Assembly (NCBI GenBank): GCA_965279375.1
Contig: OZ257156.1
Coordinates: 3,488,001-3,552,000, forward strand
Reading direction: 5' to 3'
Origin: Gemmatimonas sp.
GTDB taxonomy: Bacteria; Gemmatimonadota; Gemmatimonadetes; Gemmatimonadales; Gemmatimonadaceae
Length of the DNA: 64,000 bases
Part shown: piece after piece, positions 14,000 to 31,735 of the stretch
Position numbering within the stretch: position 1 is the first letter of the stretch
Layout of the letters: each line of letters opens with the position of its first letter
Position numbers and translations under genes: made by a program
Notes under the pieces: model-generated
What the model was told of the DNA's origin: nothing
What the model saw: the letters and a program-made list of their open reading frames with translations, nothing else
Databases searched by the model: none

Positions 14000-14532
14000 G
14001 TGCAACGACGACCACGGGTGAGTCGCCTGCCGCGCCGCTCGGTCGCGCGGCGTCCTCTACGCCGCAGTTCTGGGTGGTCGTGGCGATCGTGACAGTGATC
14101 GACTTCATCACCAAGGCCATCGCCGCTGAGCGGTTGGTGCCGCGTCATGTGCCGCACCCGATTATCGGCGACTTTCTGCGCTTCACGCTAGCTTACAATC
14201 CGGGTGCGGCATTCGGCATGCACCTCGGACCGGCGTCGCGTTGGATCTTTGCGACGTTGAGCGTCATCATCGTCGTCGTGCTGCTGCGCGCGACGGCCGA
14301 CCTCACGCGCGAGTCGCGTCTGGCTGCGATCGGAGTGCCGATCGTCATTGGCGGAGCGATCGGCAACTTGCTCGATCGGATTCGTTATCGGGATGGCGTA
14401 GTGGATTTCATTGACATCGGAGTGGGCGACGTGCGGTTCTGGACCTTCAACGTGGCCGACTCTGCGGTGACCGTCGGGGCAGTTTGTCTGGTGCTGGCGC
14501 TGTGGCGTCAGGACCAAGACGCGCAATCATGA
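13996..14532 (+). CDS. lspA: Lipoprotein signal peptidase II (copy 2)
   Basis: YNPGAAFG, GNLLDR, VVDFID, FNVAD motifs. Confidence 0.92.
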   Translation: MSATTTTGESPAAPLGRAASSTPQFWVVVAIVTVIDFITKAIAAERLVPRHVPHPIIGDFLRFTLAYNPGAAFGMHLGPASRWIFATLSVIIVVVLLRATADLTRESRLAAIGVPIVIGGAIGNLLDRIRYRDGVVDFIDIGVGDVRFWTFNVADSAVTVGAVCLVLALWRQDQDAQS

Positions 14533-15554: not shown

Positions 15555-15585
15555 GGGCGTGCCGGGCGCGTCCGCGCGCTCGGCC

Positions 15586-16002
15586 ATGTTGGACGACGAA
15601 GATCGGGCTTATGACGTGGTCGTGCGTGTCGCTGACCAACGCTACGGCATCCCGGTGTCGCAGGTCCGGGAGGTGCTGCGCCCGGGAGTGATCACGCGCG
15701 TGCCCGGCGCCCCCGAGATCGTGGTGGGTATCGTCAACGTGCGGGGCGCTGTCGTCACCGTGCTGGACCTTTCCGCACTGTTGACGGGAGAACGTGCCGT
15801 CACAGCGGCCTCGATCGTCCTGCTTGAGCACGGGACCCGCCTGGTTGGGCTGGCCGTGCAATCGGTGCGCGATGTCCGCACGATCCCGAGCGATGCTGAA
15901 GCCAGCAGCCTGGAGGTCGGCGCGGACGAGGACGTCGTACCGTTGGATGCGGCCGCGTTATGTGCGCGGCATCTGCTCTCTTCCGAGGAGATGCGACAGT
16001 GA
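15586..16002 (+). CDS. cheW: CheW coupling protein
   Basis: YGIPVSQVREVL, ITRVPGAP, GIVNVRGAVVTVLDL; start uncertain (15559 GTG or 15586 ATG). Confidence 0.85.
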   Translation: MLDDEDRAYDVVVRVADQRYGIPVSQVREVLRPGVITRVPGAPEIVVGIVNVRGAVVTVLDLSALLTGERAVTAASIVLLEHGTRLVGLAVQSVRDVRTIPSDAEASSLEVGADEDVVPLDAAALCARHLLSSEEMRQ

Positions 16003-16364
16003 GCCGGACGGTACTGATTTGCGACGATGCGATCTTCATGCGCACGATGGTGGGGGATATCCTCACGCAGGCGGGCTTCGAGATCATTGGCGAAGCGGAA
16101 ACGGGTGTGCAGGCGGTCGAGAAGTATCAGCAGCTCCGTCCTGATCTGGTGACGATGGACATCGTGATGCCCGACATGGGTGGCATCGACGCGGTCCGCG
16201 AGATCACCAAGCACGATCCGACGGCGCGCATTCTCATGTGCAGCGCGATGGGCCAGCAGGCGCTGGTGGTCGAAGCGATTCAGGCCGGCGCCAAGGACTT
16301 CGTCGTCAAGCCGTTTCAGCCGAGCCGAGTGCTCGAGGCCGTGACGCGCGTCCTCGCCGCGTAA
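15999..16364 (+). CDS. cheY: Stand-alone response regulator, CheY-like
   Basis: ICDDAIFMR, VTMDIVMPDMGG (phospho-Asp), CSAMGQQ, FVVKPF; resembles Bacillus/Thermotoga-type CheY. Confidence 0.92.
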   Translation: MSRTVLICDDAIFMRTMVGDILTQAGFEIIGEAETGVQAVEKYQQLRPDLVTMDIVMPDMGGIDAVREITKHDPTARILMCSAMGQQALVVEAIQAGAKDFVVKPFQPSRVLEAVTRVLAA

Positions 16365-16398
16365 GCGGCAATCGCTCCGTCGTACCGGGACGCACGCG

Positions 16399-18306
16399 AT
16401 GGACCAAGCCCGATACGCGGAGCTCTTTCGCACCGAGTCGCGCGAGCATCTCGGCGAGATCGATGCGGCGCTGCTCGAGCTGGAACAGACGACCGATCGC
16501 ACGCGCCAGAGTGCCGCGATCGCCACACTGTTTCGCGGCACCCACACCATCAAGGGGATGGCGGGGGCGATGGGCTACGCAGTCGTCGAGCAGGTCGCGC
16601 ACGCACTGGAATCACTGCTCGAACGCATGCGGTCTGCCGGTGCATCGGTTGATCGTGCGCTGACTGCGCTGCTGTTCGATGGGAGCGACGCATTGCGTGT
16701 GGCGCTCGACGAAGCCGGCGCGGGGGATGCCCCCTCGAGTTCAGTGATCGAGGTGCTGGCACGGCTGCGCAGCACTGCGGGCGCGTCCGGTGCCGCTTCG
16801 GCCGCGCCGACGCCTGCGCCCAGTGTACCCTCGCTCGAGTCCGCGTCATCCTCGCCGACTGCAGAGACGGCCGCGATCGAGTCGCGCGTAGTCGACGTCG
16901 CACTGACTGCCGATTGTCCGCTCAAGGGCGTGCGCGCGATGCTGGTGATGGCGAGACTGCGCGCCGTGGCGACGGTGCACGCGGTGCAGCCGCCCGAAGA
17001 ACGCTGGGGCGACGAACGCTTTGACGGGGTTTTCGCCGCAAGCTTCTCCGGCGCGATCGATGCGACCGAACTCGAGGCAAGCCTGCGCGCGGCCGGTGAC
17101 GTTGCCAAGGTCCGCATTCGCGCCGCCGACCAAACGAACTCATCGCGCGCCGACAATGCGGCCATGCGCACAGTTCGTATCGACTTGCGTCGTCTCGACA
17201 CGCTGCTCGATCTGGTCGGTGAGTTGGTGATCACGCGCGACCGTTTGCTGCGCGAGACCGAACGCGCGATCGACTCGGGAGCAAACCGAGCGCTCGCGCG
17301 CGCTGCGCAGGACACGGCGCGACTGGTGAGTGCGTTGCAGGACGAAGTGCTGCAGGCGCGCATGGTGCCCGTTGGCCAGGTGTTCGACCGCTTCCCGCGT
17401 CTCGTGCGTGACGTGGCGCGCGAACTGGGCAAGGAAGTGCACTTCACCACAGAAGGGCGCGACCTCGAACTCGATCGATCACTCATCGATGCCATCGGTG
17501 ATCCGATCGTGCATCTGCTGCGCAACGCGCTCGATCATGGCATCGAGGAGCCCGCGCAGCGACGGGCGGCGGGAAAGCCGTCTACGGGTGAGTTGGTGCT
17601 ACGCGCCGGCCGTGACCGCGCAACAGTGGTGCTGCAGGTGGAGGACGACGGTGGTGGCATCGATCGCTTGGCGATTCTCGCGCGGGCGCAGGAGCAGCAG
17701 ATCGTAAGCGCAGACCTGACCACCCTCGACGACGATCAGCTGCTGATGGTTCTCGCACACCCGGGCTTCTCGACGGCGCGCGCGGTCACGGCGATCTCGG
17801 GACGAGGCGTGGGTGTCGATGTCGTCATGACGCGGGTGCGCGCGCTGGGCGGCACGCTGGAGGTGGAGACGCTCGAAGGGCAGGGCACCGTGTTCACGTT
17901 GCGCCTGCCGGCAACACTGGCCATCACGCGCGCGCTGCTGGTGCACGTAGGTGACGAAACGTACGCATTGCCTGCCGCACATGTGATCGAAGTCGCAGAA
18001 TACACGCCCGGCACGATCGTCACGGAGCAGGCGCACGAGCGCATGATGTGGCGTGATGAAATGCTGCCAGTGGTCCACCTTCGCGAGCGTTTCGGACACG
18101 CGCGCGCCGAACGTGAAACGTTTGTTGCCATCGTCGAATCGGCGGGACGACGCGCGGCATTGTTCGTTGATGCATTGCTCGCGCAACAGGACATCGTGGT
18201 CAAGCCGCTCGACGTGGTGCGTGGAAGTAGCGCGCTGTTCAGCGGCGCGACTGTGCTCGGTGACGGTAGCCCCGCACTCATCGTCGATGTAGGCGCGTTC
18301 TGCTGA
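16399..18306 (+). CDS. cheA: Chemotaxis histidine kinase CheA
   Basis: Hpt FRGTHTIKGMA, P2-like region, dimerisation LDLVGELVI, HLLRNALDHG, EDDGGGID, GFSTA, SGRGVG, C-terminal CheW-like P5. Confidence 0.95.
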   Translation: MDQARYAELFRTESREHLGEIDAALLELEQTTDRTRQSAAIATLFRGTHTIKGMAGAMGYAVVEQVAHALESLLERMRSAGASVDRALTALLFDGSDALRVALDEAGAGDAPSSSVIEVLARLRSTAGASGAASAAPTPAPSVPSLESASSSPTAETAAIESRVVDVALTADCPLKGVRAMLVMARLRAVATVHAVQPPEERWGDERFDGVFAASFSGAIDATELEASLRAAGDVAKVRIRAADQTNSSRADNAAMRTVRIDLRRLDTLLDLVGELVITRDRLLRETERAIDSGANRALARAAQDTARLVSALQDEVLQARMVPVGQVFDRFPRLVRDVARELGKEVHFTTEGRDLELDRSLIDAIGDPIVHLLRNALDHGIEEPAQRRAAGKPSTGELVLRAGRDRATVVLQVEDDGGGIDRLAILARAQEQQIVSADLTTLDDDQLLMVLAHPGFSTARAVTAISGRGVGVDVVMTRVRALGGTLEVETLEGQGTVFTLRLPATLAITRALLVHVGDETYALPAAHVIEVAEYTPGTIVTEQAHERMMWRDEMLPVVHLRERFGHARAERETFVAIVESAGRRAALFVDALLAQQDIVVKPLDVVRGSSALFSGATVLGDGSPALIVDVGAFC

Positions 18307-18395
18307 GCGAACACGCGCCTGTAGTCCAGCTGGATTCCGAACGACTACCGATCTGACGTGATCGTTGCGCTGCCCGAACTGAAAGCGGAGTGAAG

Positions 18396-19016
18396 ATGGA
18401 GGCGATTCGGTCGCTCAAGACGATACAGCTCGATGCGCTGCGCGAAACGGCGAACATCGGCGCGGGGCACGCCGCAACGGCGCTGTCGCAGATGACGGGC
18501 AGCACGATCATGATCAAGGTGCCCGCGATCAGCATCGCCAGCATCGATGATCTCCCCGCGCAGTTCACGGACGAAGAGGAGCCGGTCGCCGCGGTGCTCA
18601 TGCACATGCTCGGCGATTTGAGTGGACGCACCCTGCTCGTCTTTCCGCGTCCGACGGTGATGCGTCTTGCGGAACTGATGCTGCGTCGTCCCGTGGGCTC
18701 GTCGCTCGCGCTCGGTGAGCTGGAGACCTCGGCCATCAAGGAAGCGGGCAATATTCTCAGCGGCGCGTACATGAACGCGCTCAGCGACTTCCTCGGCATG
18801 CTGCTCCTCCCGTCACCGCCCACGCTGGTGATCGACATGTCCACGGCCGTGTTGAGCAGCGCCTTCGCCGAGTTTGCACCGGACCCGGACGCGATCATTT
18901 GCGTCGAGAGCGAGTTCATGCTCACCGAGACCGGTCACACGCTCCGCGGATTCTTCTTGCTTTTGCCGGACCCCGCGTCGCTGCAGGTGATGTTGCGCGC
19001 ACTGCGTCTCGCGTAA
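18396..19016 (+). CDS. cheC: CheC phosphatase
   Basis: Two E-x2-N motifs: ETANIGAGHAATALSQM and EAGNILSGAYMNALSD. Confidence 0.92.
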   Translation: MEAIRSLKTIQLDALRETANIGAGHAATALSQMTGSTIMIKVPAISIASIDDLPAQFTDEEEPVAAVLMHMLGDLSGRTLLVFPRPTVMRLAELMLRRPVGSSLALGELETSAIKEAGNILSGAYMNALSDFLGMLLLPSPPTLVIDMSTAVLSSAFAEFAPDPDAIICVESEFMLTETGHTLRGFFLLLPDPASLQVMLRALRLA

Positions 19017-19039
19017 CCCGCAGGTCAGGCGCAGTGCAG

Positions 19040-21676
19040 ATGGAGCCGATGGCCCCCGGAGGACGCGACGCCGAGCTGCTGCGCGCGATGCTGACGCGCA
19101 TCGATCAGCAGGACCCGGGTGCGTTCAACAACCTCGGCGTGCTGTATCACAGCAAGGGACTCTACGCCGAGGCGGTGGACGCCTTCCTGCGCGCGCTTGC
19201 CCTCGATCCTCGCATGCGGACGGCGGCGCGCAACCTCGAGATTGCGGCGACACGCGACGGTGCCTGCGACTCGCGTCTTGCGAGTTTAGCGGCCCGGCTG
19301 GAGATCGATGCAGACGACGTGGTGGCGCTGCGTGAGCGTGCGCGGCTGCTGCGACTCATCGGCCGCCACACGGAGGCCTCGCAACAACTCGACGCGCTGA
19401 TCGCGGCCGATCCCGACGATACCGCCTCACTCTTCGAGCGCGGACTGATCGAGCAGCGTGCGGGCGACCTGCGTCGCGCGCAGCGGTGGTTCGAGCGCGC
19501 AGTGAACGTGTCCTCCGGTGATCCGATTCCGCGGCTGCATCTCGCCGAGGTGCTGTACCAGCGAGGGCAGAACGAGCAGGCGCTGGAGGCGCTCGAGTCG
19601 CTGTTGACGTTGTGGCCGAACATGGCCGATGCGCACCTGCTGCACGGCTTCGTGCTCGGCGACATGGGGCGCCACGAGGCCGCACGCGATGCGTCGCGCA
19701 AGGCCTCTGCGCTCAACCCGTCGTTGCAGACACTGCAGCCCGATCTCTCGCTCGACGGTGGTGTGGCTCCGATTCCGTACGCACCCGTTCAGCGCGATGT
19801 CCCCGCTGAAGGCGCGTTGGCACGCTACGGACTTGGTCTGGCGTTTCGTCAGCGTGGCTACTTCGACGAAGCCCGCCGCGAGTTCGAGCGAGCGCTCGCG
19901 CAGGGTGAGGATGCGCGCCTTGCACGACACGCGATTGCCGAGCTCGATCTCGTCGCCGGTCGTTTCGCGGATGCTCGCGCCGCGTACGAACAGCTGCTGC
20001 AGGAGCAGGCCGACCAGCCGCGGCTCTGGAACGAGCGCGGCGCGGCGCTGCATCAGGGCGGTGATGTCGAAGGCGCGGCGGAGAGCTATCGACGTGCGCT
20101 GCGCATCGATCCGCGCTACGCAATTGCGTACAACAATCTTGGCGTCGCGCTTTCCGATCTCGGCGAGGCGTCGGCCGCGCGCGAGGCACTCTTGCGTGCG
20201 GTGGAGCTGGATGCTGCGCTCGCACGCCCCAAGCTGAATCTGGCACGCTGGTACGTGCGCCATCGCGATCCACTGGCCGCGCTGTCGTTGTTGCGCGAGT
20301 TCGTGGCGTTCCACGCGGACAATGCTGACGCGTGGCATGACCTGGGTGTCGTCTTTCAGCTGCTGCATCGCACCGATGAAGCCCGCGATGCGCTGGCGCG
20401 TGCCATCGAGCTGCGTCCCGATCACGCCGAGGCGCGGTACGCGCTGGCGCAGGTGCTGGCATCGTTGGGAGATGACGATGGCGCGCTGCGCGAGACGCAG
20501 CGTGCGTTGGGGCTCGCCCCGGTTCGTGTGGAGCCGCGACTGATCATCGTGATCGCGTTGCAACTCGAGTGTCCTGAAGCGGCTGGTCTGCTGGATCTGC
20601 TGGCGATCGCCGCGGATGTGCCGCTTGCCGGTGTGTCGCTCGACGAGCAGACGGTCGCCGGGTTGCTGCCGCAGTTGGAGCCAGTCGCGCCAATTGCCAT
20701 CGTCGACGATGTGGCCGCGCGAATCACGCGATTCTGCGAAGAGGGCGATGCCTTCGCCGCGCGGCGACTGCATGGCGAGGCCGGCGATCGTTACGCAGCC
20801 GCGCGCGGCTTACTGGAGGGCGAAGGGCTTCCTGCGATCAGCGGCGACGGCTCGCTGGGGCCGCTGTGGCATCGTGCGGTCGTTGGCGAGGCGCGCTCGC
20901 TCTGCCTGCTTGGCTCGGGACATCATGCGATGTCGCGACTGCGCGGTCTCGCGGCGCAGTATCCGGAGGACGCCGAAGTTGTGGCGCTCTTCGCGTCGAG
21001 TGCTGCCGCGGCTGCAGCCCGTCAGGAGGCACCGGCTGAGGTCGTACCAGTGCTGCTGCGTCGGCTGCTGCGGCTGGAAACCGACAGTGCGGCACTGCTG
21101 CACTTCGCAGGCGACACGGCGGTGAGTATCGGAGATGGCGTCCTCGCGCTCGCCTGCTACCGGCGTGCGCTCGCGATCGACCCAACTCGGCCATCGCCGC
21201 GCGTGGCCATCGCGCGCGTGTTACGTCATCGGGGCGATCTGCAGGCCGCACGGCTGGAGCTCGTAGCGGCGCTGGCGACTGCGCCGGAGTTCCGCGATGC
21301 GCTGTTGGAGTTGGCGCGCGTGAACCTCGCGACGCGAACGGTGCGCGAGTCTGTCGCCGGACTCACGCGACATCTCGCTGCCGTACCGACAGACCTCGAC
21401 GCGCTCGTGCTGCTGATCGAACTGCTCGTGGCAGTTGACCGTGATGCTGACGCGCGTGTGGCGGTCAGTCGCGTGCTCCGGCATGACGCAGAGCATGTCG
21501 GTGCGCTCTGGTTTGACGGGGTTTTGCTCGCTCGACAGTCGCGCATGCGCGAAGCCGTCGATCGGTGGATGCGGGTGCAGCGTTCTTCCGATGACGAATT
21601 CGCGCCGCGTGCGACGAAGGCATTGGCGAAGGTCGAGGAACGTGAGCAGCTGAGCGATCTGCGGAAGGCTTCGTGA
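19040..21676 (+). CDS. Large TPR-repeat protein (~880 aa)
   Basis: Many TPR units (AFNNLGVLY, AYNNLGVAL, AWHDLGVVF, ARYGLGLAF); no signal peptide; start inferred. Confidence 0.85.
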   Translation: MEPMAPGGRDAELLRAMLTRIDQQDPGAFNNLGVLYHSKGLYAEAVDAFLRALALDPRMRTAARNLEIAATRDGACDSRLASLAARLEIDADDVVALRERARLLRLIGRHTEASQQLDALIAADPDDTASLFERGLIEQRAGDLRRAQRWFERAVNVSSGDPIPRLHLAEVLYQRGQNEQALEALESLLTLWPNMADAHLLHGFVLGDMGRHEAARDASRKASALNPSLQTLQPDLSLDGGVAPIPYAPVQRDVPAEGALARYGLGLAFRQRGYFDEARREFERALAQGEDARLARHAIAELDLVAGRFADARAAYEQLLQEQADQPRLWNERGAALHQGGDVEGAAESYRRALRIDPRYAIAYNNLGVALSDLGEASAAREALLRAVELDAALARPKLNLARWYVRHRDPLAALSLLREFVAFHADNADAWHDLGVVFQLLHRTDEARDALARAIELRPDHAEARYALAQVLASLGDDDGALRETQRALGLAPVRVEPRLIIVIALQLECPEAAGLLDLLAIAADVPLAGVSLDEQTVAGLLPQLEPVAPIAIVDDVAARITRFCEEGDAFAARRLHGEAGDRYAAARGLLEGEGLPAISGDGSLGPLWHRAVVGEARSLCLLGSGHHAMSRLRGLAAQYPEDAEVVALFASSAAAAAARQEAPAEVVPVLLRRLLRLETDSAALLHFAGDTAVSIGDGVLALACYRRALAIDPTRPSPRVAIARVLRHRGDLQAARLELVAALATAPEFRDALLELARVNLATRTVRESVAGLTRHLAAVPTDLDALVLLIELLVAVDRDADARVAVSRVLRHDAEHVGALWFDGVLLARQSRMREAVDRWMRVQRSSDDEFAPRATKALAKVEEREQLSDLRKAS

Positions 21677-22842
21677 GCCTCGAAGGACGCATCCGCGACC
21701 TCGGCCTGCCGGAGGTCTGCCAGCTGCTCGGGGCGAGCCGCAAGACCGGCACGCTGCGCGTGCTCGCACCTCTTCGAGCCCGCGACGCCGAGATTCGGTT
21801 CATAAGTGGACAGATCGCCGACGCCCGACAGTGGCAGACTGACGTGCCTCTGAACGAGCTGCCGGCGTCGGTGCCTACGCCCGATGCTCGTGCGGTCGAG
21901 GCGTGCGTGCTCGAAGTCCTCACTTGGGGGGATGGCGAGTTCCAGTTTGTGGCCGAGAAGGGAGCTACCCGATCGGCCAGTCCGGTTCGATTGAACGTGG
22001 AGCCGCTGCTCGTTGAGGCGGCGCAACGCGCCGAGGTGTGGCAGCGCGTGCGCGATCGCATCGCGGGCCCGCAGGCAGTGCCTGCCTTCGTCGACATCGA
22101 TCCGCAACAGCTCCCATTGCTACGGCTCGTGCCGCAGGAGTGGGAAGTGCTCACCCGGGTCGATGGTGCGCGGGATCTGCAGGCGCTCGCCGCGGTGCTG
22201 GGGCGCAGTTTGCTCGACGTCGCGCAGATCGTGCACGCGCTCGTCGGCGCGGGCGTGCTCGCCATTCGCGATCTGACCATCGCGCCACGGCGACACCCCA
22301 CGCCGCCGACGCAGTTGGCCGTGCCGTCATGGCCGGACGCGTTCGATCCCGACGACGATGAGCGTGTGCTCGACGCCGGTGACCTTCTCGCCGACGCGTT
22401 CCGCGCCGACGCGCTCGACGCCGGAGATTCGAGTGACATCGACGACGCCGTCTTCGATCCGATTGCCGCTGGTGTGACGGATGCGGACGGAATTCCCCGT
22501 CGACTAACGCCGCGCACCACCGACGTTATCGCCGTTTCGGATCGAGTATTGCAGGCGGCGTCGACGCTCGAATTCCCCAGTGAAAATGCCGTTGCGTCCT
22601 CGCCAGTGCAGCAGTCCTTGTCGCAGGAGACGCGGCAACGTCGTGCCAGCGGGGTGAGCGCAGTGACGCTGTGCCTGCATGGTGACGATGCCGCCCGACA
22701 TGGTGACTTGGCGGGTGCGTTGACGTGCTGGAGTGCGGCGCTACGTGCCGATGCGACGTCCATCGACGCGGATCGGGTGCGCGAGGCGATTGCGCTTGCT
22801 GCTCGTCTGCACGCGTTGCTGCACCCGTCGGGACGAAGCTAG
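21673..22842 (+). CDS. DUF4388 (PATAN-like) domain protein
   Basis: LEGRIRDLGLPEVCQLLGASRKTGTL...W.DGEFQF...LLVEAA; then HTH-like segment EWEVLTRVDG and acidic linker. Confidence 0.8.
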   Translation: MSLEGRIRDLGLPEVCQLLGASRKTGTLRVLAPLRARDAEIRFISGQIADARQWQTDVPLNELPASVPTPDARAVEACVLEVLTWGDGEFQFVAEKGATRSASPVRLNVEPLLVEAAQRAEVWQRVRDRIAGPQAVPAFVDIDPQQLPLLRLVPQEWEVLTRVDGARDLQALAAVLGRSLLDVAQIVHALVGAGVLAIRDLTIAPRRHPTPPTQLAVPSWPDAFDPDDDERVLDAGDLLADAFRADALDAGDSSDIDDAVFDPIAAGVTDADGIPRRLTPRTTDVIAVSDRVLQAASTLEFPSENAVASSPVQQSLSQETRQRRASGVSAVTLCLHGDDAARHGDLAGALTCWSAALRADATSIDADRVREAIALAARLHALLHPSGRS

Positions 22843-22867
22843 AACGCAGTCAGAGAGGAGCGGGCGA

Positions 22868-23506
22868 ATGCCCATCGTAGATCACGCCACGCGGCTGATC
22901 ACATGCAAGCTGGTCTACTACGGACCGGGTCGATCGGGAAAGACGACGAACCTGACCTACCTGCACTCGGCGTTGCCGAGCGGGCAGGTGGGCTCGCTCA
23001 CGTCACTCGCGACTCGCCGCGACCGCACGCTCTTCTTCGACTACCTGCCGGTGGATCTCGGAACGGTCGGCGCGTACAAGGTGCGCTTTCAGCTCTACAC
23101 CGTTCCCGGCCAGCCGTACTACCGCAGCATTCGCCAGCTTGTGCTGCAGGGCGCTGACGGCGTCGCGTTCGTTGCGGACAGCCAGCGCCATCGCTGGGAA
23201 GACAACATCGACAGCATGCAGGACATGCACGCGAACCTGGCCGAGCACGGCATCGACGCGCGCGCGCTCCCGATGGTCATGCAGTACAACAAGCAGGATC
23301 TTCCGCCATCGCTGGCGGCCACCGTCCCCGAGCTGTCGCGCGCGCTGAACTTTCGCGGCGTTCCTGAGTTCGGCGCCGACGCTCCGAATGGCATCGGCGT
23401 GTTCGACACGCTGCGCGCACTCGGCATGCGCGTGCTGCGTCGCCTTGGCGCCGACAGCGCAGCGGAAGACGAACGGCATGACGGCATCACGGCAGGTGCG
23501 GCATGA
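22868..23506 (+). CDS. mglA: MglA-family small Ras-like GTPase
   Basis: KLVYYGPGRSGKTTNL, DRTLFFDYLP, QLYTVPGQ, DGVAFVADS, QYNKQDL, all MglA signatures; AGAGGAG RBS. Confidence 0.9.
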   Translation: MPIVDHATRLITCKLVYYGPGRSGKTTNLTYLHSALPSGQVGSLTSLATRRDRTLFFDYLPVDLGTVGAYKVRFQLYTVPGQPYYRSIRQLVLQGADGVAFVADSQRHRWEDNIDSMQDMHANLAEHGIDARALPMVMQYNKQDLPPSLAATVPELSRALNFRGVPEFGADAPNGIGVFDTLRALGMRVLRRLGADSAAEDERHDGITAGAA

Positions 23507-25467
23507 CACCGCACCCGGAGGAGCCGGCCTACCGCTTCGACAACTTCGTGGTGGGCGCGTCAAACCGACTCGCGTCGTCCGCAGCCATGGCCGTGGCCGA
23601 TGCACCGGGGGCGGCGTACAATCCGTTGTTCGTCTACGGGGACTCGGGGCTGGGCAAGACGCATCTCGTCGCGGCGATCGCCCATCGCGCGCTGGCGTCG
23701 CGTCCGGAGTTGCGTGTCGAACTGAGTAGCGGTGAGGAGCTGGCCGAGCGATTGCACCAGGCGATCGCGACCGGGCAACAGGAGCAGTTCACCGAGCGCT
23801 ATCGACAGGTGCAGCTGCTGGTGCTCGATGACGTGCAGTTTCTCGCCGGCCAGCGGGAGACGCAGAGTGAGTTGCTGCGGCTGTTCAATCTCATGCAGGG
23901 CGCCGGCCGTCAACTGGTGATGACCAGTGATCGACCACCCAGCGAAATCCCGGACGTCGATCAGCGCCTGCTGTCGCGCTTCTCCGGTGGGTTGATCGTG
24001 GATGTGGGCGCGCCCGATTACGAGATGCGTCTGGCCATTCTGCGAAACGCGGCCGACGTACGTGCCCTGCAGTTTGGCGACGGCGTGCTCGAGGAAATGG
24101 CGCGACTTGCCTTCGGCAACGTGCGTGAACTCAAGGGCGCGCTGAACAAGATCACGGCATTCCAGCAGCTCGATGGCACGGTCATCACGCCCAATGACGT
24201 GCGCGCCGTGCTGGGCGAGCGCGCGTCGGTGGCGTCCGCTCCCGACCGTCGCGACGTCGCGCCGACGATGCTTGGCGCGGAGTATGAAGGCTTCCTCGCC
24301 GATGTGCTGCAGGAGGTCGAGACGCGCGTGGAGAAGTGGCGCGTGGTGTTGGGTGAAGCCTGCAGCTATTGGCGTGCGGAAGGGTTTGTCACGCAGGTAT
24401 TGGAGCGTGCGGTCGCGCATCCTGTCCAGCCCGACGTGAACGGACTGCTCGCCACGTTCAGCGCGGCGGTCGAGCATCTGCGCGCGATCGAGGCGCAGGC
24501 GGTGCTCCTCGATCCTGCGCTCCGCGGCCACAGTGCCTTTCGCAATCCCGAAGCGGTGGCGGAAGCGCAGGCGTTGCTCGATCGTGCGATGGCGACTGCC
24601 ATTCCGCTGCCTGCGCCCAATGCGGCGTTTACACGAGATGCTCTTGAAGTGGGCAGCGCCAATCAACTGGCGCTCAAGGCCTTCGACGCCGTGGTCGAGC
24701 ATCCGGGCGCGCGCTACAACCCGCTCTTCGTGCACGGCCCGAGTGGAGTGGGGAAGACGCACGTGCTGCACGCATTGGGCAATGCCATGCGCGCGGCGTG
24801 GCCCGAGAAGGCGATCGCGTGCGTGACCGGCGTGGCCTTCGGGGACGAATTGGTGCAGGCGCTGCAGGAGGGCGGGGTGGAGCGGTGGCGTGCGCGCTAT
24901 CGCGCCGCTGACGTGCTGCTGGTGGACGATGTCCATTCTCTGCGCGACCTCGAGCGGACGCAGGAAGAACTCTTCCACCTCTTCAATCACGTGTACGATC
25001 GCGGGGGGCAGATCGTGCTCACGGCCGATCGTCCTCCGCGTGAGTTGACGGGCTTTGCCGATCGACTGCGGTCGCGATTCGAAGGCGGCCTGGTGGTGGC
25101 GATGCATGGCCCCGATCGCGCACTCCGCGAACGACTCGTCTCGCGCTGGCTCGCTGAAGCGGCTGCTGAGCCCACGCAGGAGTTGGTCGCGATGCTCGCT
25201 GATCGCGACGTCAGCAGCGTGCGCGAGCTCAACGGACTCTTCAAGCGCATCGAAGCCGCCTCCGATCTGAACGGTTTTGCGATCAGCCTCGAGTCCGCGC
25301 AGCGCGCACTCGGCATTCAGCCGACGCGCGTCACCCGTCGTGTGCCCACACGTGTCCTATCCACCGGCGCGGACGGAGTGTCCATCGACGACTTCTTTCT
25401 CGATCGCGAGAAGATGATTCTCGATTGGCCCGAGATCGGCGGACGCGTGATCGAGGAGCTGCGCTGA
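23503..25467 (+). CDS. DnaA/Hda-family protein with two tandem DnaA AAA+ domains, lacking DnaA domains I and IV
   Basis: Two copies of YNPLF..G..G.GKTH, DDV, T.DRPP, RL.SRF.GGL and .VREL.G; no C-terminal HTH 'RDHTTV' motif. Confidence 0.88.
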   Translation: MTPHPEEPAYRFDNFVVGASNRLASSAAMAVADAPGAAYNPLFVYGDSGLGKTHLVAAIAHRALASRPELRVELSSGEELAERLHQAIATGQQEQFTERYRQVQLLVLDDVQFLAGQRETQSELLRLFNLMQGAGRQLVMTSDRPPSEIPDVDQRLLSRFSGGLIVDVGAPDYEMRLAILRNAADVRALQFGDGVLEEMARLAFGNVRELKGALNKITAFQQLDGTVITPNDVRAVLGERASVASAPDRRDVAPTMLGAEYEGFLADVLQEVETRVEKWRVVLGEACSYWRAEGFVTQVLERAVAHPVQPDVNGLLATFSAAVEHLRAIEAQAVLLDPALRGHSAFRNPEAVAEAQALLDRAMATAIPLPAPNAAFTRDALEVGSANQLALKAFDAVVEHPGARYNPLFVHGPSGVGKTHVLHALGNAMRAAWPEKAIACVTGVAFGDELVQALQEGGVERWRARYRAADVLLVDDVHSLRDLERTQEELFHLFNHVYDRGGQIVLTADRPPRELTGFADRLRSRFEGGLVVAMHGPDRALRERLVSRWLAEAAAEPTQELVAMLADRDVSSVRELNGLFKRIEAASDLNGFAISLESAQRALGIQPTRVTRRVPTRVLSTGADGVSIDDFFLDREKMILDWPEIGGRVIEELR

Positions 25468-27188
25468 TGGCCATCCGCGGCAACTTGAATGAGGCGAGTC
25501 TCGCCGACGTGCTGCAGCTCCTGGCCCTTGGTCAAAAGACCGGATGCCTCAGCGTGGCACGCGAAGGCAGCTTCGGCACCATCCACTTCGACGGTGGACG
25601 CATCGTCTTCGCGTCCATCGTCAACCGGCGCGATCGCCTTGGCGATCGGCTGGTACGCAACGGTGCTATCGCCGCCGATACGCTGGCGCGACTGGTGGGC
25701 ACCGCAGCGCCCAACGACGATCGAGCACTCGCTGTGGCGTTGCTCGATCGCGGTCTCGTGGACTTCGACCAGCTCGAAGCGATCTACCGGGTACACGTCG
25801 AAGAGTCGGTCTACTTCCTGCTCGGTTGGACACAGGGGACGTTCACCTTCGAGGCTGCGCCGCGCGCCGACGAGTCGGACATCCTCGTTTCCATCAGCGC
25901 AGATTCGCTGCTGCTGGAGGGGGCTCGTCGCGTCGACGAGTGGACGCTGGTCGCGAAGAAGATCCCGAGTCTCGATCTGATCTTCGAAGCGGACATCACG
26001 CGTCTCGCCGGCCGCGAGGCGCCGCTGAGCGCGACGCAGGAGAAGCTGCTGCCACTGCTCGATGGCACGCAGGACGTCAACAGCATCATCGAACGTTCTG
26101 GGCTCGGCGAGTTTGAGGTAGGCAAGGCGCTCTTCGGCTTGCTGACCGCGGGATACGTGCAGCGTGTCGGGCGCAGCGCGGCACGGCGTCCGCCGCCGCC
26201 AGAGAGCCGTGTGGCGGAGCACCGAAACCTTGGCGTCGCGTTCTATCGCACGGGGCTGTACGACGAGGCGCAGCGGGAATTCCGCCGCGTGCTCGAACTG
26301 CGCGACAGCGACAGTGCGGCGCGATTCCACTTGGGTCTCGTGCATCTGCGTCGCGGCGAGTGGGATGAAGCCGTCTCGGTGCTCCAGCGAGCCACCGCGG
26401 AACCGGACGCGCCGGCCGCGGCCTTTCACAATCTCGCGTACGCCTGCGAGCGGCTCGGACGATTGGACGATGCCCGAGCCATGCTGGCCGAGTCGGAGCG
26501 TCGTCAGACCGCGGGCGACCCGCGCACCCAGCTGTCGTTGGCAATCGTCGCGCTGACGGCGGGTGAGTTGGTGGCGGCGGAATCGCACTTGGCGTCGGCG
26601 CGCGAGCTCTGGGGCGCGCGCCAGCCGTCGGCGGCGTGGTTTCACGCGGCGGGGCTCACGGCGGCGCTCGCCGGCGACTTGCCACGCGCCACGCGCGTGC
26701 TGGAGGAAGGGATCGGCATGCACCCCCATGCGGCGACCTTGCACAACAATCTCGCGGTGGTGCACGAACGCCGTGGCAGCTACGAACTCGCTGCTCGTAC
26801 CATCGAGCACGCGCTGCTGGAGGACGCCAACGCTGCGCATCTGCACAAGAACCTTGGCGACTATCTGTATCGAGCGCAGAGGTACGACGAGGCGTTCGAG
26901 GCATTCACACGCGTCGTGCGCCTCGACGCCACGCACGGCGCCGATGTGCACCTCAAGCTTGGCAACATTCTCTATCGCCGCGGGGAGCTGCGTGACGCGC
27001 AACTCGCCTGGGAGCGGGCACAAGTGATCGAGCCACACAACGCTATCGTGCGAGCCAATCTCGACGCATTGGGACGTGCCGACCTTCGCGAGTCTTCGCG
27101 CGGGAGCCGGGCCACTTCACCCGCGCTGCGCACGGTCACTGATCCGTCGCCCGCGTCAACGACAGCGATGGCCGAGGAAGCGGCATGA
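25467..27188 (+). CDS. DUF4388 + TPR-repeat protein
   Basis: IRGNLNEASLADVLQLLALGQKTGCL...WTQGTFTF...LLLEGARRVDEW, followed by multiple TPRs. Confidence 0.82.
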   Translation: MAIRGNLNEASLADVLQLLALGQKTGCLSVAREGSFGTIHFDGGRIVFASIVNRRDRLGDRLVRNGAIAADTLARLVGTAAPNDDRALAVALLDRGLVDFDQLEAIYRVHVEESVYFLLGWTQGTFTFEAAPRADESDILVSISADSLLLEGARRVDEWTLVAKKIPSLDLIFEADITRLAGREAPLSATQEKLLPLLDGTQDVNSIIERSGLGEFEVGKALFGLLTAGYVQRVGRSAARRPPPPESRVAEHRNLGVAFYRTGLYDEAQREFRRVLELRDSDSAARFHLGLVHLRRGEWDEAVSVLQRATAEPDAPAAAFHNLAYACERLGRLDDARAMLAESERRQTAGDPRTQLSLAIVALTAGELVAAESHLASARELWGARQPSAAWFHAAGLTAALAGDLPRATRVLEEGIGMHPHAATLHNNLAVVHERRGSYELAARTIEHALLEDANAAHLHKNLGDYLYRAQRYDEAFEAFTRVVRLDATHGADVHLKLGNILYRRGELRDAQLAWERAQVIEPHNAIVRANLDALGRADLRESSRGSRATSPALRTVTDPSPASTTAMAEEAA

Positions 27189-27664
27189 GCGAAATCCAGG
27201 TTCGTATTGCCGACTATGCGGTGGCCGGCAGTGAGTCGGTGCTCGTGACCAACGGCATCGGCTCGTGTGTCGCGATCGCGCTGTATGAGCGCGAGGCGCG
27301 GGTGGGAGCGCTGGCGCACATTCTGCTCCCCAACGAGGTGCTCACCGCGTCGCAGGAACCGCCGGGCAAGTGCGCATCATCGGCGATTCCGGTGATGGTG
27401 CGGCGCATGCGTGAGCTCAAGGGCACTGGTGAGATCCAGGCGCGGCTGATTGGCGGCGCCAGCATGTTCGCGCCTTTGCTGATTCCCGGTGCGCTCTCGC
27501 TCGGCGCGCGGAACATCGCAGCCGCGCGGGCCGCACTCGCTGCGGCGGACATTCCCGTGGTGGGCGAAGACGTCGGCGGCGATCACGGACGGTCGGTGCA
27601 CTTCGCGCTCGAGGATGGCAGTCTGTTGGTCAGGTCCGTGGCGAAGGGCGATGTCCGACTCTAG
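27185..27664 (+). CDS. cheD: Chemoreceptor glutamine deamidase CheD
   Basis: TNGIGSCVAI (catalytic Cys), AHILLP (His), GGASMF, GARN, DVGG..GR. Confidence 0.9.
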   Translation: MSEIQVRIADYAVAGSESVLVTNGIGSCVAIALYEREARVGALAHILLPNEVLTASQEPPGKCASSAIPVMVRRMRELKGTGEIQARLIGGASMFAPLLIPGALSLGARNIAAARAALAAADIPVVGEDVGGDHGRSVHFALEDGSLLVRSVAKGDVRL

Positions 27665-28793
27665 CGCTCCACTTCGTCGCGTCGGCGAGGGCTCCCGGCC
27701 ACGCGTGCTCGTCGTGGACGACAGCGCGTTCATGCGTCGCATCGTCAGTGATGTCGTTGCATCGAGCGGCGAGTTCGAAGTGGTGGGGACGGCGCGCGAC
27801 GGCGTGGATGCGTTGCGACAGGTGACGCGCCTCGATCCAGACATCGTCACGCTCGACGTGGACATGCCCGAGATGGATGGCTTGTCCGTGCTGCGCTGCA
27901 TCATGCAGGAGAATCCGCGCGCCGTCGTCATGCTCAGTGCAGGTGGAGCAGATGGCGGGGCTGATGCGACGCTGCGCGCGCTGGAACTCGGCGCCGTGGA
28001 GTTCGTGCGCAAACCGTCGGGAGCGATCAGTCTGGATCTCGAAGACGTGTCGGAGCAGCTGCTCGACGCACTCCGCGCCGCCGCGTGCATCAACCTCGAT
28101 ATTCTTCCGCGCCCGGTCGATCGCGGTGCTATCGCCGTGGAGTTGCCGCCGCACCAGCAGCACTCAGGACGTCGGGCCACGCAGCTCGTGTGCATCGCGG
28201 CCTCCACGGGTGGCCCTGCGGCACTGGCCAAGGTCATTCCCAAGCTGCCGCGGTTTGCGCAGACGGCGGTTGTGATCGTGCAGCACATGCCCGCCGGATT
28301 CACCGCGAGCTTCGCCGCACGGTTACGCGGCGCCTCGCGCCTGCCGGTGCACGAGGCGCGCAATGGCGATGCGTTGTTTGCGGGGCACGTCTATGTCGCG
28401 CCGGGCGGCTTTCATCTGCGTGTGGGCGGTCCGGCCGGTCTGCCGGCGCTCTTTCTGGACTGCGGCCCGACGGAATGGGGCGTGCGCCCTGCCGCCGATC
28501 CGCTGTTCAAGTCTGCGGTGCCGTACTTCGGCGCGGCGATCATTGGCGTGGTCATGACCGGCATGGGCTGCGACGGCGCGGCTGGCTTGGCCGCCGTGCG
28601 CAACGCTGGCGGTCTGGCGCTCATTCAGCAGCGCGATACGGCCGTGATTCCCGGCATGCCCGATGCCGCGCTGCGCACCGCAGGTGCCGATCGCATTGTC
28701 ACGCTGGACGAAATGGCAGACGCGATCGTCGAGTGCAACGCTCTGCGCGAGTCGAGTGCGAGCGATTCGTCGCTCTTCGAGGTCGCGTCGTGA
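27651..28793 (+). CDS. cheB: CheB methylesterase (REC + esterase)
   Basis: VVDDSAFMR, TLDVDMP; ASTGGP, VQHMP, TGMGCDG (Ser-His-Asp triad). Confidence 0.93.
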   Translation: MSDSSAPLRRVGEGSRPRVLVVDDSAFMRRIVSDVVASSGEFEVVGTARDGVDALRQVTRLDPDIVTLDVDMPEMDGLSVLRCIMQENPRAVVMLSAGGADGGADATLRALELGAVEFVRKPSGAISLDLEDVSEQLLDALRAAACINLDILPRPVDRGAIAVELPPHQQHSGRRATQLVCIAASTGGPAALAKVIPKLPRFAQTAVVIVQHMPAGFTASFAARLRGASRLPVHEARNGDALFAGHVYVAPGGFHLRVGGPAGLPALFLDCGPTEWGVRPAADPLFKSAVPYFGAAIIGVVMTGMGCDGAAGLAAVRNAGGLALIQQRDTAVIPGMPDAALRTAGADRIVTLDEMADAIVECNALRESSASDSSLFEVAS

Positions 28794-29323
28794 GCACCGG
28801 TCAGTTCCGCTCGACGACCATGTTCGCGCCCCGCGCCCGCGCATCGGTTCCAGCGGTGGATCGCGCGACGTTCGTTGTCTTTGCGATGGCCGATCGGCGC
28901 TTCGCCGTGCCGGTCGAATCGGTGGAGCGGGTGCTGCGGGACTCGGTGGCGGCAGGTCCGGCGACCACTGCTGCGTCGGTGAACTACGGTGGCCAGTCGT
29001 ATGCCGTGGCCGATCTGGCCAGCGCGCTCGGTGTGGAGTTTGCACCCACGGCGGCGTCGCGTGTGCTGGTGCTGTCGGGCGGTGGAGAGCATCGCGCGGT
29101 GATCGTGGATCGGGTGCTGGAAGTCGCCACGATCGATGCCGGTATCGTGGAGGCGGCGGACGCGGTGCACGACGGGATCGCGGCGCTGCCGAACGCGGGC
29201 GTGCGCGGCGTCTTCACACGCAATGGCGCAGCGGTGATTGTTCTCGATGTCTCGCGCCTCCTCGACGAGACGTTGCACACCGCCCACGGCCCCGCCGCTT
29301 TCCGCAAGGAACGTTCGTCATGA
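28790..29323 (+). CDS. cheW: Second CheW-like protein
   Basis: FVVFAMADRRFAVPVESVERVL, VADLASALG, AVIVDRVLEV, IVLDVSRLL; GTG overlaps cheB stop. Confidence 0.72.
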   Translation: MSTGQFRSTTMFAPRARASVPAVDRATFVVFAMADRRFAVPVESVERVLRDSVAAGPATTAASVNYGGQSYAVADLASALGVEFAPTAASRVLVLSGGGEHRAVIVDRVLEVATIDAGIVEAADAVHDGIAALPNAGVRGVFTRNGAAVIVLDVSRLLDETLHTAHGPAAFRKERSS

Positions 29324-30180
29324 CGAGCAGCCCGCTGTCCGAACTGCAATCGCTGCGCGCACGACAGGCCGCGATCGCGTCGGCCTTGTCGGCCAGCCCC
29401 AGCGCGGAATCGCGAGCACAACTCAAGCAGGACATCATCGCGCTCTTTCGCGAGACCGATGCGGTCTACGCAGCGCTGGGCGAGCTAAAGTCCGACGTGA
29501 AGGCGTTGGCGGAGACGTGGAAGCAATTGGACGGCCGAAGCGCATCCAGTCCGCACGCCGGCGTCTCATCGCGGGTCGATCACTTGGGCGCGTCGACCTT
29601 CGTCGAGAAGGGGTGGTCCAAGCTCTCGCTCGGCGATGCGGCAGGCGCTGAAGTGGCGCTGCGGCGCGCGTTGGAACTGGCGCCGGCGGATGACGAAGCG
29701 GAAACGCTGCTCGGCTGGGCGCAGATGCTCCAGGAGCAGTATGACAGTGCGTTGCTCACGTTCCACAACGTGCTCATGCGCGACCCGCAGAACACGCTTG
29801 CCCGCACGAACGTGGGATTCATCTGTCTGCGCAAGAAGAGCTACGGCGAAGCCATCGAACATCTTTCGCGCGCCATTCGCATCGACAGCGATCGCAAGGC
29901 CACGCTGTACGCTCATCTCTATCTCGGCATGGTCTACCGCGAGCGTGAGATGTACGCCGACGCAGAACTGTTCTTCCGCAAGGCGATCGAGCTCGGACCG
30001 AATCTGATTCAGGCGTGGTACGAATTGGGTCGTGCCCGCTGGTTCGCCGGGGAGCACGCCGGTGCGCGCGATGCGTGGCGTGCCGGTGCGGAGGCCAACA
30101 AGTTCAATCCATGGGGAAAGCGCTGCGCCGAAACGCTGGAGTCGGTCGATCGTGGGGAGGCTCCGCCGCGCGACGCGTAG
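29320..30180 (+). CDS. Coiled-coil + TPR-repeat protein
   Basis: N-terminal amphipathic helices, then TPRs (ARTNVGFI, AHLYLGMVY, AWYELGRA). Confidence 0.8.
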   Translation: MTSSPLSELQSLRARQAAIASALSASPSAESRAQLKQDIIALFRETDAVYAALGELKSDVKALAETWKQLDGRSASSPHAGVSSRVDHLGASTFVEKGWSKLSLGDAAGAEVALRRALELAPADDEAETLLGWAQMLQEQYDSALLTFHNVLMRDPQNTLARTNVGFICLRKKSYGEAIEHLSRAIRIDSDRKATLYAHLYLGMVYREREMYADAELFFRKAIELGPNLIQAWYELGRARWFAGEHAGARDAWRAGAEANKFNPWGKRCAETLESVDRGEAPPRDA

Positions 30181-31223
30181 TTGCCTCGCTCGCGATGGTG
30201 GCGGGCCTGGCTTTCACCGCGATGTCTCAAGAGCCGATCGCCTTGCGCGGCGGCGTCCAGCTGAGTCGTGGCCGCTTTACCGTAGTGGCCGACCAGCGCG
30301 ATGCGCGACTCGCACAGTCGCTGCTCAATTCCGCGCTCGCGCAGGACAGCTTTCCGGGGCTGCCGCGCCCCAAGGCTCAAGTCCTGATCGGCGTCGCGCC
30401 CAACGCGGCGCGCTTTCGCTCCTGGGTGGGACCCAACGCGCCAGAGTGGGGCGCTGCCATCGCGTTCCCTTCGCAGCAGCGCATCGTGATGCAGGGCAGT
30501 GGAGCCGGGAGCGACGCGGGCGATCCACTGGTGGTGCTGCGCCACGAACTGGCGCATCTGGCGCTGCACGAGGCGCTGGGCCCTCTGCCGCCGCGCTGGT
30601 TCGACGAGGGCTACGCCAGTGTGAGTGCGCGTGAGTGGAGCCGAGAGCGCACCATCGAGACGTCGAGCGGGATGGTGTTCAAGTCGCTCCCCAATCTTGA
30701 GGCACTCGAAGAGGGCTTCGCGGGGCACGAAGGCGAGGCGAACTGGAGCTATGCGCTGGCCTATCGCGCCGTGGATGAGCTGGCTGCACTCGATTCCCGC
30801 AACGGCCTGACGAATTTTTTCGCCGAGTGGAAACGCTCAGGGACGTTCGAGCGGGCAGTGCGTAGCGCGTACGGGATGACGGGCGAGCAGTTCGACAAGC
30901 ACTGGCGCACGCAGACTCGGCGCCGGTACGGTGCGCTGGCCGTGCTGACGGATGCGTCCGCGGCCATCGGGTTCTTTGGGCTGCTGCTGGGGCCGCTGTT
31001 CTGGATGCGTTGGCGTCGGGACCGCCGCCGGCTGGAGGCGATGCGGGTGGCGGATCGAGCGCAGGAGCGCGCGGCGCGGGAGAGCGCGCTGGAGGCGATT
31101 TTGGCCGGTGAGACCGGTGACCAACCGGTGGGTTCGACGAGTTCGGTGAGTGAAGGCACGTCGGCGGAGGGACCGTCGGCGGAGGCCGGGTCGGCGCCTT
31201 CGAGCACGCCAATTTCCCACTGA
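30111..31223 (+). CDS. Exported/membrane HEXXH metallopeptidase (peptidase MA-like)
   Basis: LRHELAH and PRWFDEGYA gluzincin pattern, N-terminal hydrophobic signal, C-terminal TM helix; start uncertain (30111 or 30195). Confidence 0.75.
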   Translation: MGKALRRNAGVGRSWGGSAARRVVASLAMVAGLAFTAMSQEPIALRGGVQLSRGRFTVVADQRDARLAQSLLNSALAQDSFPGLPRPKAQVLIGVAPNAARFRSWVGPNAPEWGAAIAFPSQQRIVMQGSGAGSDAGDPLVVLRHELAHLALHEALGPLPPRWFDEGYASVSAREWSRERTIETSSGMVFKSLPNLEALEEGFAGHEGEANWSYALAYRAVDELAALDSRNGLTNFFAEWKRSGTFERAVRSAYGMTGEQFDKHWRTQTRRRYGALAVLTDASAAIGFFGLLLGPLFWMRWRRDRRRLEAMRVADRAQERAARESALEAILAGETGDQPVGSTSSVSEGTSAEGPSAEAGSAPSSTPISH

Positions 31224-31462: not shown

Positions 31463-31536
31463 GGGCGAATAGCTCAGTTGGTTAGAGCGCCTGTCTTACA
31501 CACAGGATGTCGGGGGTTCGAGTCCCTCTTCGCCCA
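31463..31536 (+). tRNA. tRNA-Val (anticodon TAC)
   Basis: Cloverleaf: GGGCGAA/TTCGCCC acceptor stem, GCTC/GAGC D stem, CCTGT-CTTACAC-ACAGG anticodon arm, GTTCGAGTC T loop; CCA not encoded. Confidence 0.97.
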
Positions 31537-31735
31537 TCCGGTCACACTCTCTGGCGGAGAACGTCTTGCGATGATTTCCGGCGGGAAGCAAGTTCTGTCT
31601 TCGTCCTCGAGTTCCCTCGACTCGCGTGGCTTTCGCACGGCCACCGAGTTGTATTCGCCCCCGACAGCACATCGCGCCGCCGCGCTGTGGACTTGTCGGT
31701 CACTACGGCTCCTCTGTGCGGAGGTTACGACATTG

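Follow-up and report, generated by a model that had tools for sequence, protein, structure and literature searches.

The subject of this report is a gene at positions 23503 to 25467 (forward strand) of a 64,000-nucleotide stretch of Gemmatimonas sp. DNA (contig OZ257156.1, positions 3,488,001 to 3,552,000; hereafter the window, whose numbering is used below). It codes for a protein, P0001, with two DnaA-type AAA+ modules in tandem, which is most likely an adaptor in cell-polarity signalling and not a replication protein. More specifically, it is proposed, with a probability of roughly 0.5, that the tandem protein docks on the PATAN-TPR protein encoded by the next gene and that its ATP-driven head-to-tail assembly would cluster this partner for pilus or polarity control. 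Its grounds include the following: (i) it is read as an adaptor because relatives without one or both ATPase engines still keep the helix and tail motifs; and (ii) docking on the PATAN-TPR protein is favoured because tail and partner are adjacent in 152 of 152 loci, while mglA and the che genes can leave the locus. The gene has the following parts:

23503..25467, forward strand: tandem DnaA-type protein gene (P0001), 654 residues, 0 internal stops
23521..24216, forward strand: AAA+ module 1, residues 7-238
24277..24333, forward strand: acidic amphipathic helix E-[FY]-x-x-F-L-x-D, residues 259-277
24334..24606, forward strand: helical repeat, one unit of about 95 residues (W-x-x-E-G ... DP)
24622..25314, forward strand: AAA+ module 2, residues 374-604, complete in the Gemmatimonas sp. 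P0001
25384..25464, forward strand: C-terminal tail F-x3-EK-x4-WP-x4-R-x2-EE, residues 628-654

Distribution and natural deletion series

The tandem DnaA-type gene is an old Gemmatimonadota gene. With a profile of its middle domain it is found in 201 of 301 Gemmatimonadota genomes (by family, 55/70 in f1, 121/125 in f2, 12/48 in f7 and 0/23 in f6), and in the order it is near-universal (179 of 198 genomes). These genome tallies, the partner-gene counts and mini-form genus matches given below, and one locus (L275) of the partner-adjacency count include the unpublished genomes G055, G095, G154, G179, G302, G353 and G381, on which nothing else in the analysis depends. A deliberately diverse set of 117 distinct open reading frames (ORFs), whose counts are not to be read as frequencies, comprises 44 complete forms, 31 with a lidless module 2, 20 without module 2 and 3 split between frames; the remaining 19 are cut or not scored.

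Fourteen further genomes have the downstream partner gene without the middle domain. Eight of these loci were fetched, and six of them hold, in the same gene slot, a mini-protein of 60-73 residues which consists of the acidic helix and the tail; the other two hold, respectively, one degenerate module plus the tail, and both modules without the repeat. The mini-genes, readily overlooked in annotation, are:

L240:7747-7926, reverse strand: helix and tail
L245:7949-8131, reverse strand: helix and tail
L241:7697-7912, reverse strand: helix and tail
L242:8778-8984, forward strand: helix and tail
L239:9130-9342, forward strand: helix and tail
L244:8927-9145, forward strand: helix and tail

Matches to the mini form come from genera g5, g9, g17, g21 and g166, nested within f1, and point to one or two origins (a single origin is not rejected by the approximately unbiased (AU) test, p-AU 0.345).

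The initial annotation had left the linker and the tail as filler, and it is these that hold the most conserved parts. The tail is present in all forms seen, and of 58 rows across all forms, 90% or more retain each of F264, W642, R648 and E651. At W642, F264, E636 and K637 it is the amino acid that is conserved, and most of these positions vary in their synonymous codons. The last tail codons probably double as the ribosome-binding site of the next gene; the final EE may reflect this, an explanation that cannot hold for W642, F264, E636 and K637. The ATPase engines would be the dispensable part of the family, because relatives have a module 2 that has lost its lid, its Walker motifs or its whole length, and six loci keep only the mini-protein. 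It is about an even bet that the helix and tail are a docking motif forming the core of the protein, with the ATPases as a tunable add-on. As part of the wider signalling-switch reading discussed at the end, the Gemmatimonadota forms (from two modules through lidless and one-module versions to the 60-residue mini form) may, rather tentatively, be regarded as a natural deletion scan that exposes this core.

Four loci (L072, L078, L081 and L098) have the gene divided over more than one reading frame, through sequencing error or a real split. A library protein, P0256, has a cysteine-containing N-terminal domain followed by the helix, the repeat and a tail-like end, with no AAA+ module; it may be a protein of this type that gives G048, G170 and G234 their second match.

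Operon and constant downstream neighbour

The neighbouring genes in the window are as follows:

25467..27188, forward strand: DUF4388 (PATAN) domain plus TPR repeats, with an MshEN-like insertion at about 25629-25796; proposed partner
22868..23506, forward strand: mglA-type small GTPase
21673..22842, forward strand: second DUF4388 protein
19040..21676, forward strand: large TPR protein
15580..19016, forward strand: cheW, cheY, cheA and cheC (starts approximate)
27185..31223, forward strand: cheD, cheB, cheW, small TPR protein and peptidase-MA-like gene

As the initial annotation stated, mglA overlaps the start of the tandem gene by 4 nt (ATGA). At the other end, the start of the partner gene overlaps the stop of the tandem gene by 1 nt (TGATG); a stop/start overlap with the downstream gene occurs in 38 of 58 rows, and the tail ends in GAG GAG. 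The common form of the operon runs cheW-cheY-cheA-cheC-TPR-DUF4388-three Roadblock/MglB-type genes-mglA-tandem DnaA-type gene-DUF4388/TPR-cheR-cheD-cheB-cheW-TPR-peptidase (the Roadblock and cheR labels were read from translations).

In the 163 loci examined, of which 14 were chosen through the partner (10 were fetched that way) or are duplicates of one genome, the DUF4388-TPR gene starts at most 150 nt after the tail in all 152 loci with a tail match. The partner gene is present in 215 of 301 genomes, including all 201 with the middle domain. In five f7 loci and in L098, mglA and the che genes are gone and the pair of tandem gene and partner is retained; in L240-L243 and L245, mglA and/or the che genes are absent from the locus. 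The partner's MshEN-like insert is deleted in five of the six mini-protein loci. In this genus, the first copy of the MshEN motif (tandem RLGxxL..G) is intact and the second is degenerate, both being intact in most other genera; against the MshEN model NF053729 the partner scores 19 bits (cut-off 38). In Synechocystis, PATAN domains bind PilB1 and PilC, of the pilus motor (10.1101/2021.06.11.447907). The Gemmatimonas sp. genome encodes PilB/PilT-type ATPases.

This genus has lost the three Roadblock/MglB-type genes between DUF4388 and mglA (window 21673-23506); Roadblock genes lie elsewhere in the genome, at C1:3060481 (adjoining a second mglA) and C1:3663792. The chemosensory operon (15580-29323) lacks a receptor gene, and in this genus it also lacks cheR; outside it, the genome has two more cheA loci and 14 chemoreceptors. 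The idea of a receptorless operon in which the tandem protein replaces receptors was rejected, given those 14 chemoreceptors and the presence of some in 43 of 52 genomes; none were found in the four f7 genomes tested. In most loci, the cluster is flanked by lspA-rluA (13996-15554 in the window) and by a division cluster with rsmH and a penicillin-binding-protein gene (33656-37082). A tRNA-like stretch lies near 31470-31550. P0303, in which the tandem protein is joined inside DUF4388, is a likely chimera (a single sequence without the partner's first ~30 residues) and was not used.

The two AAA+ modules

The motifs described in the initial annotation were all located where it had placed them: Walker A at 23638-23661 and 24736-24759, DDVQ at residues 109-112, DDVH at residues 475-478, the sensor I, Box VII and sensor II motifs in both modules, and the tail stretch at residues 629-643. 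The Pfam scan that it had proposed gives Bac_DnaA in two stretches of P0001 (E 1.8e-105), and Bac_DnaA_C and DnaA_N are not among the best 25 of 27 Pfam families, which agrees with the claimed lack of domains IV and I. Neither family occurs in the precomputed domains of the 120 close homologues listed, a custom domain IV profile built from canonical DnaAs has no match in P0001, and module 1 already begins at residue 7, where domain I would have to precede it. The view of P0001 as a repurposed ATPase and not an initiator is supported. Both sites would also be catalytically intact in this copy, as predicted, judging from their complete motifs.

The modules are 37% identical over 230 residues and their DNA has only an 11-bp chance match in common, which means that the tandem is no recent duplication and no assembly repeat. 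Nor is the tandem an assembly artefact absent from relatives, a possibility that had been raised: the two-module form occurs in 34 of the 39 closest loci, the remaining five being ordinary alphaproteobacterial dnaA. A full-length canonical dnaA with domain IV, whose existence was to be confirmed, is at G000:C1:1198743-1200161, about 2.3 Mb from the tandem gene. Genome-wide, Bac_DnaA matches only this dnaA and the two modules, with no separate Hda.

In the AlphaFold model of P0001 (mean predicted local distance difference test score, pLDDT, 82.9), both modules and the middle domain are folded, the orientation of the modules is not fixed (predicted template modelling score, pTM, 0.50) and the C-terminal tail is disordered, with pLDDT <50 (53-58 in another model). 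The best structural matches are to B. subtilis DnaA domain III.

Module 1 of P0001 keeps Walker A and B, sensor I, the arginine finger R159 and sensor II R208. Among the 120 close homologues, to which all residue counts out of 120 refer, K52, D109, D110, D143 and R159 are kept in 119 and R208 in 120. Module 2 keeps its arginine-finger face (R467, R521, R525 and L530) in all 120; its lid with sensor II is missing in 11, and in f7 Walker A and B are gone and the Box VII arginines are retained. The initial annotation had suggested a covalent dimer; that two working sites so joined are the point of the protein is not supported, since many relatives have a lidless, Walker-dead or absent module 2.

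The set of residues with which DnaA initiators bind single-stranded DNA (ssDNA), namely I190, K222 and T225 in B. subtilis, is not found in P0001. Module 1 has H85, Q117 and T120 at these positions (His and Gln at the first two in 105/120 and 102/120), and module 2 has V451, L483 and T486, the K222 position being Lys in 104/120 homologues. In B. subtilis DnaA, K222Q blocks strand separation (10.1101/2022.03.18.484894).

Deep phylogeny is limited to quick trees. The two modules are separated by one branch (Shimodaira-Hasegawa-like approximate likelihood ratio test 98 and 94), and the tandem form is older than the radiation of the class, because both modules split by host family. When each half was placed against DnaA and Hda, as had been suggested, the P0001 modules did not group with E. 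coli Hda (a long branch). In AU tests, p-AU was 0.845 for modules 1 and 2 together (26.6 log units above the free search), 0.548 for both modules with their own DnaA, and 0.41 for all signalling forms as one clade.

Proposed mechanism

The proposed adaptor would be cytoplasmic and belong to a Gemmatimonadota polarity and chemosensory hub. Its helix and W-x-W-P tail, as their conservation suggests, would be the two halves of a motif that docks on the PATAN-MshEN-TPR protein of the next, translationally coupled gene. Module 1 would be the ATP switch, while module 2, judging from its residues, would mainly provide an arginine-finger face; ATP would be hydrolysed in module 1 with the arginine finger of module 2 or of another copy. 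ATP binding would lead to DnaA-style head-to-tail contacts within or between molecules, and the resulting assembly would multiply the docking motif and cluster the partner, perhaps gated by cyclic di-GMP bound to the MshEN insert of that partner. From there, by analogy, the PATAN domain may act on the polarity machinery or on the motor of the type IV pilus, relaying the signal.

Several points weigh against this adaptor. The whole case is comparative. The final EE codons of the tail (GAG GAG) are explicable by the ribosome-binding site of the next gene, and translational coupling alone could give the tight adjacency. With no more than one or two origins of the mini form, the accompanying loss of the MshEN insert counts as one event, and L242 is a mini-protein locus that retains the insert. 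Moreover, the second half of the partner's MshEN motif is degenerate in this very genus, f7 genomes still carry one mglA elsewhere (5/5), and the helix and the tail may each have a docking protein of their own, or may bind one another. The low model confidence of the tail counts on the same side, as do the 14 loci picked through the partner or as duplicates and the fact that related genomes are not independent.

Alternative explanations

A regulator of true DnaA, i.e., an Hda-like inactivator or filament cap which lends its arginine finger to DnaA-ATP and ties replication to the polarity hub, is improbable. Such a role would suit the near-invariance of both arginine fingers, the lack of a separate Hda in the genome and the presence of the gene in nearly the whole order (179/198). 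Nevertheless, there is no conserved clamp-binding motif, the Hda cut-off is missed (162.6 vs 194.8 bits), dnaA lies about 2.3 Mb away, the 20 kb scanned around the tandem gene contain no perfect DnaA box, both AAA+ modules are degenerate in several f2/f8 lineages, and G056, which lacks the tandem gene, has a single DnaA-type match. Capping of DnaA, put forward in the initial annotation, is further at odds with the mini forms, in which both AAA+ modules are deleted and the gene slot is kept. Equally improbable is an effector, GTPase-activating protein or exchange factor of the adjacent MglA GTPase that polymerises on MglA-GTP: mglA lies directly upstream in most loci, this genus keeps it together with the tandem gene despite the loss of the three Roadblock/MglB genes, and the mini-proteins of L239, L241, L242 and L244 still follow it. 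Yet mglA is gone from six f7 loci and from L240, L243 and L245, while the downstream gene is never gone, so that MglA as the key partner is not supported; given the one more distant mglA of the f7 genomes, its loss from the locus only weakens this explanation.

A nucleoid or ssDNA tether, with module 2 positioning a chemosensory or polarity complex on the chromosome, is slightly less probable still. Its module 2 residues matching E. coli V211, K243 and R245 are kept in 120, 104 and 120 of 120, and archaeal and MshEN-fused DnaA-like domains retain most of them; module 2, however, is the first part to be lost (absent in 20 of the 117 distinct ORFs), at the K243 position P0001 itself carries Leu (module 2) and Gln (module 1), there is no domain for binding double-stranded DNA, and the K222Q effect in B. 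subtilis mentioned above (10.1101/2022.03.18.484894) argues the same way. As for a decaying dnaA duplicate, kept only for the translational coupling of the downstream gene, it is very hard to credit: the repeated loss of parts, the stop/start overlap (38/58 rows) and the GAG GAG ending are in its favour, but 119/120 homologues have the module 1 catalytic residues unchanged, W642, F264, E636 and K637 stay the same amino acids with synonymous codons varying at most of these positions, and the two modules can each be followed along the host families to the ancestor of the class.

Comparison with known systems

With the DnaA initiator, both P0001 modules share the domain III features (Walker A/B, sensor I/II and arginine finger), as judged against B. 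subtilis 8BV3/8BTG, T. maritima 2Z4R and A. aeolicus 2HCB/3R8F: phmmer gives E 1.9e-57 to B. subtilis 8BV3, Foldseek a root-mean-square deviation (rmsd) of 1.9-2.2 A over about 235 columns, and module 1 is 40-47% identical to canonical DnaA. P0001 differs from DnaA in that it has no domain I or IV, two modules, changed ssDNA residues in module 1 and a gene in a signalling operon of a genome that also has a full dnaA. It scores 495 bits against TIGR00362 DnaA (cut-off 344), with the two modules summed; therefore, pipelines mislabel it as DnaA. With Hda/HdaA, P0001 shares a DnaA-type AAA+ without domain IV and a conserved arginine finger, but its Walker A lysine is canonical, where E. coli Hda has Arg, it has two modules plus extra domains, and, as already noticed at the outset, no clamp-binding motif is evident (2/120 scattered, unrelated pattern matches). 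Both Hda models fall short of their cut-offs (TIGR03420 162.6 vs 194.8; NF005982 59.9 vs 268). By such family tests, P0001 is neither DnaA nor Hda, and the chances are about equal that it is, or is not, a DnaA-style oligomerising switch reused in signalling.

The IstB/DnaC/DnaI models are not reached either (NF038214 104.7 vs 200; DnaI 58.5 vs 228; DnaC 18.1 vs 357), and no transposase or helicase neighbours were found at the loci examined. For double-ring (D1-D2) AAA+ proteins (p97/Rix7), Foldseek gives rmsd >20 A and a template modelling score of about 0.27, with a model whose module orientation is unfixed (pTM 0.50). MshE and PilB are MshEN-regulated ATPases under the control of cyclic di-GMP; the pairing of MshEN motif and ATPase recurs here, with the motif in the next gene, and in P0289-P0296 in a single chain, but here the ATPase is a DnaA-clade AAA+ and not a RecA-like secretion ATPase. 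The Myxococcus MglA/MglB and Synechocystis PatA-type systems likewise have Group 1 MglA, Roadblock, PATAN and TPR genes by a chemosensory system, and PMC4316618 records MglA in the vicinity of PATAN genes; in contrast, a DnaA-type ATPase is not mentioned there, 'DnaA' having 0 matches in the main text of that paper. The DnaA-like ATPases mentioned in PMC4158269 are viral only. A literature search found no description of the tandem DnaA-type family, with one probably relevant paper and one supplement lying outside it. Such proteins may be listed in a 2017 mBio paper on archaeal KaiC-like hubs or in supplementary table S2 of PMC4316618.

Middle repeat domain and its relatives

The linker is a single unit of a helical repeat whose homologues stand in tandem in proteins of Thermoplasmata. 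Against 1.84 billion representatives, the middle-domain profile finds long proteins, some named Thermoplasmata, that match it in as many as 27 stretches. A repeat profile built from 18 of those proteins alone matches the Gemmatimonadota profile with 98.2% probability (E 5e-14), and 50 of 52 linkers reach at least 17 bits against it, reversed linkers scoring at most 10.6. The linker of P0001 itself is weak (11-13 bits) and ranks second among 42,340 ORFs of the genome. Searches with the middle domain gave nothing above the cut-off in Pfam and PDB sequences and no usable match in the ESM Atlas, and a fold search with helix, repeat and tail (top Z score 6.1; no Foldseek match at E 0.001) settles neither a known nor a new fold.

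At least 33 proteins carry the same helical repeats ahead of a DnaA AAA+ domain lacking domain IV; two of the 33 listed are named Thermoplasmata or Thermoplasmatota. Like P0001, the Thermoplasmata repeat-DnaA, DUF835-DnaA, DnaA-T2SSE and MshEN-DnaA proteins join AAA+ without domain IV to signalling parts; they differ in having several repeats, one AAA+ (or two far apart) and zinc ribbons, and the helix-and-tail motif was not found in them (common ancestry, p-AU 0.41). The observed types are: (i) P0130, P0141, P0125, P0305, P0336 and others, with an N-terminal domain, up to 8 helical repeats, DnaA AAA+ and zinc ribbons, often labelled DnaA (AAA+ about 55-65% identical to bacterial DnaA) and, where named, from Thermoplasmata; (ii) P0289-P0296 (1867-1999 residues), with MshEN, DnaA AAA+, a long helical stretch and DnaA AAA+ in one chain; (iii) DnaA AAA+ fused to a T2SSE ATPase (P0307) or to DUF835 (P0309, P0338, P0376 and P0317), some with HEAT repeats; and (iv) the helical repeat fused to KaiC-like (P0269) or DUF835 (P0124) domains. 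P0289-P0296 represent a separate duplication, because in the tree their first and second modules group as sisters (98); look-alikes of these fusions in the Atlas are commonest in Ca. Hydrogenedentota, which is a lead. Archaeal and MshEN-fused DnaA-like domains mostly keep the ssDNA-related residues, and Gly at the E. coli W288 position is common to most of the signalling-type DnaA domains. Pfam did not bear out a likeness between DUF2226/PATAN and the N-terminal domain of the archaeal proteins, and a metagenome scan for archaeal repeat-DnaA loci returned ordinary dnaA (79/80 with domain IV).

Significance

To our knowledge, the known DnaA-clade ATPases (DnaA, Hda, DnaC/DnaI and IstB) all act in DNA transactions. 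It is conceivable, at odds of about one in three, that DnaA AAA+ has a second role as a signalling or assembly switch, in an ancient branch which, with a dedicated helical repeat, would use ATP-driven DnaA-style polymerisation without DNA and which, in Gemmatimonadota, Thermoplasmata archaea and Hydrogenedentota-type bacteria, would cluster PATAN, MshEN, KaiC-like and pilus-ATPase partners. Such a branch would also account for false 'second dnaA' and 'archaeal dnaA' annotations. If true, a class-wide DnaA-clade member in pilus and polarity signalling, with archaeal parallels, would widen the range of functions of the fold, and it would give a first mechanistic handle on the control of behaviour in Gemmatimonadota, an abundant and barely studied soil phylum.

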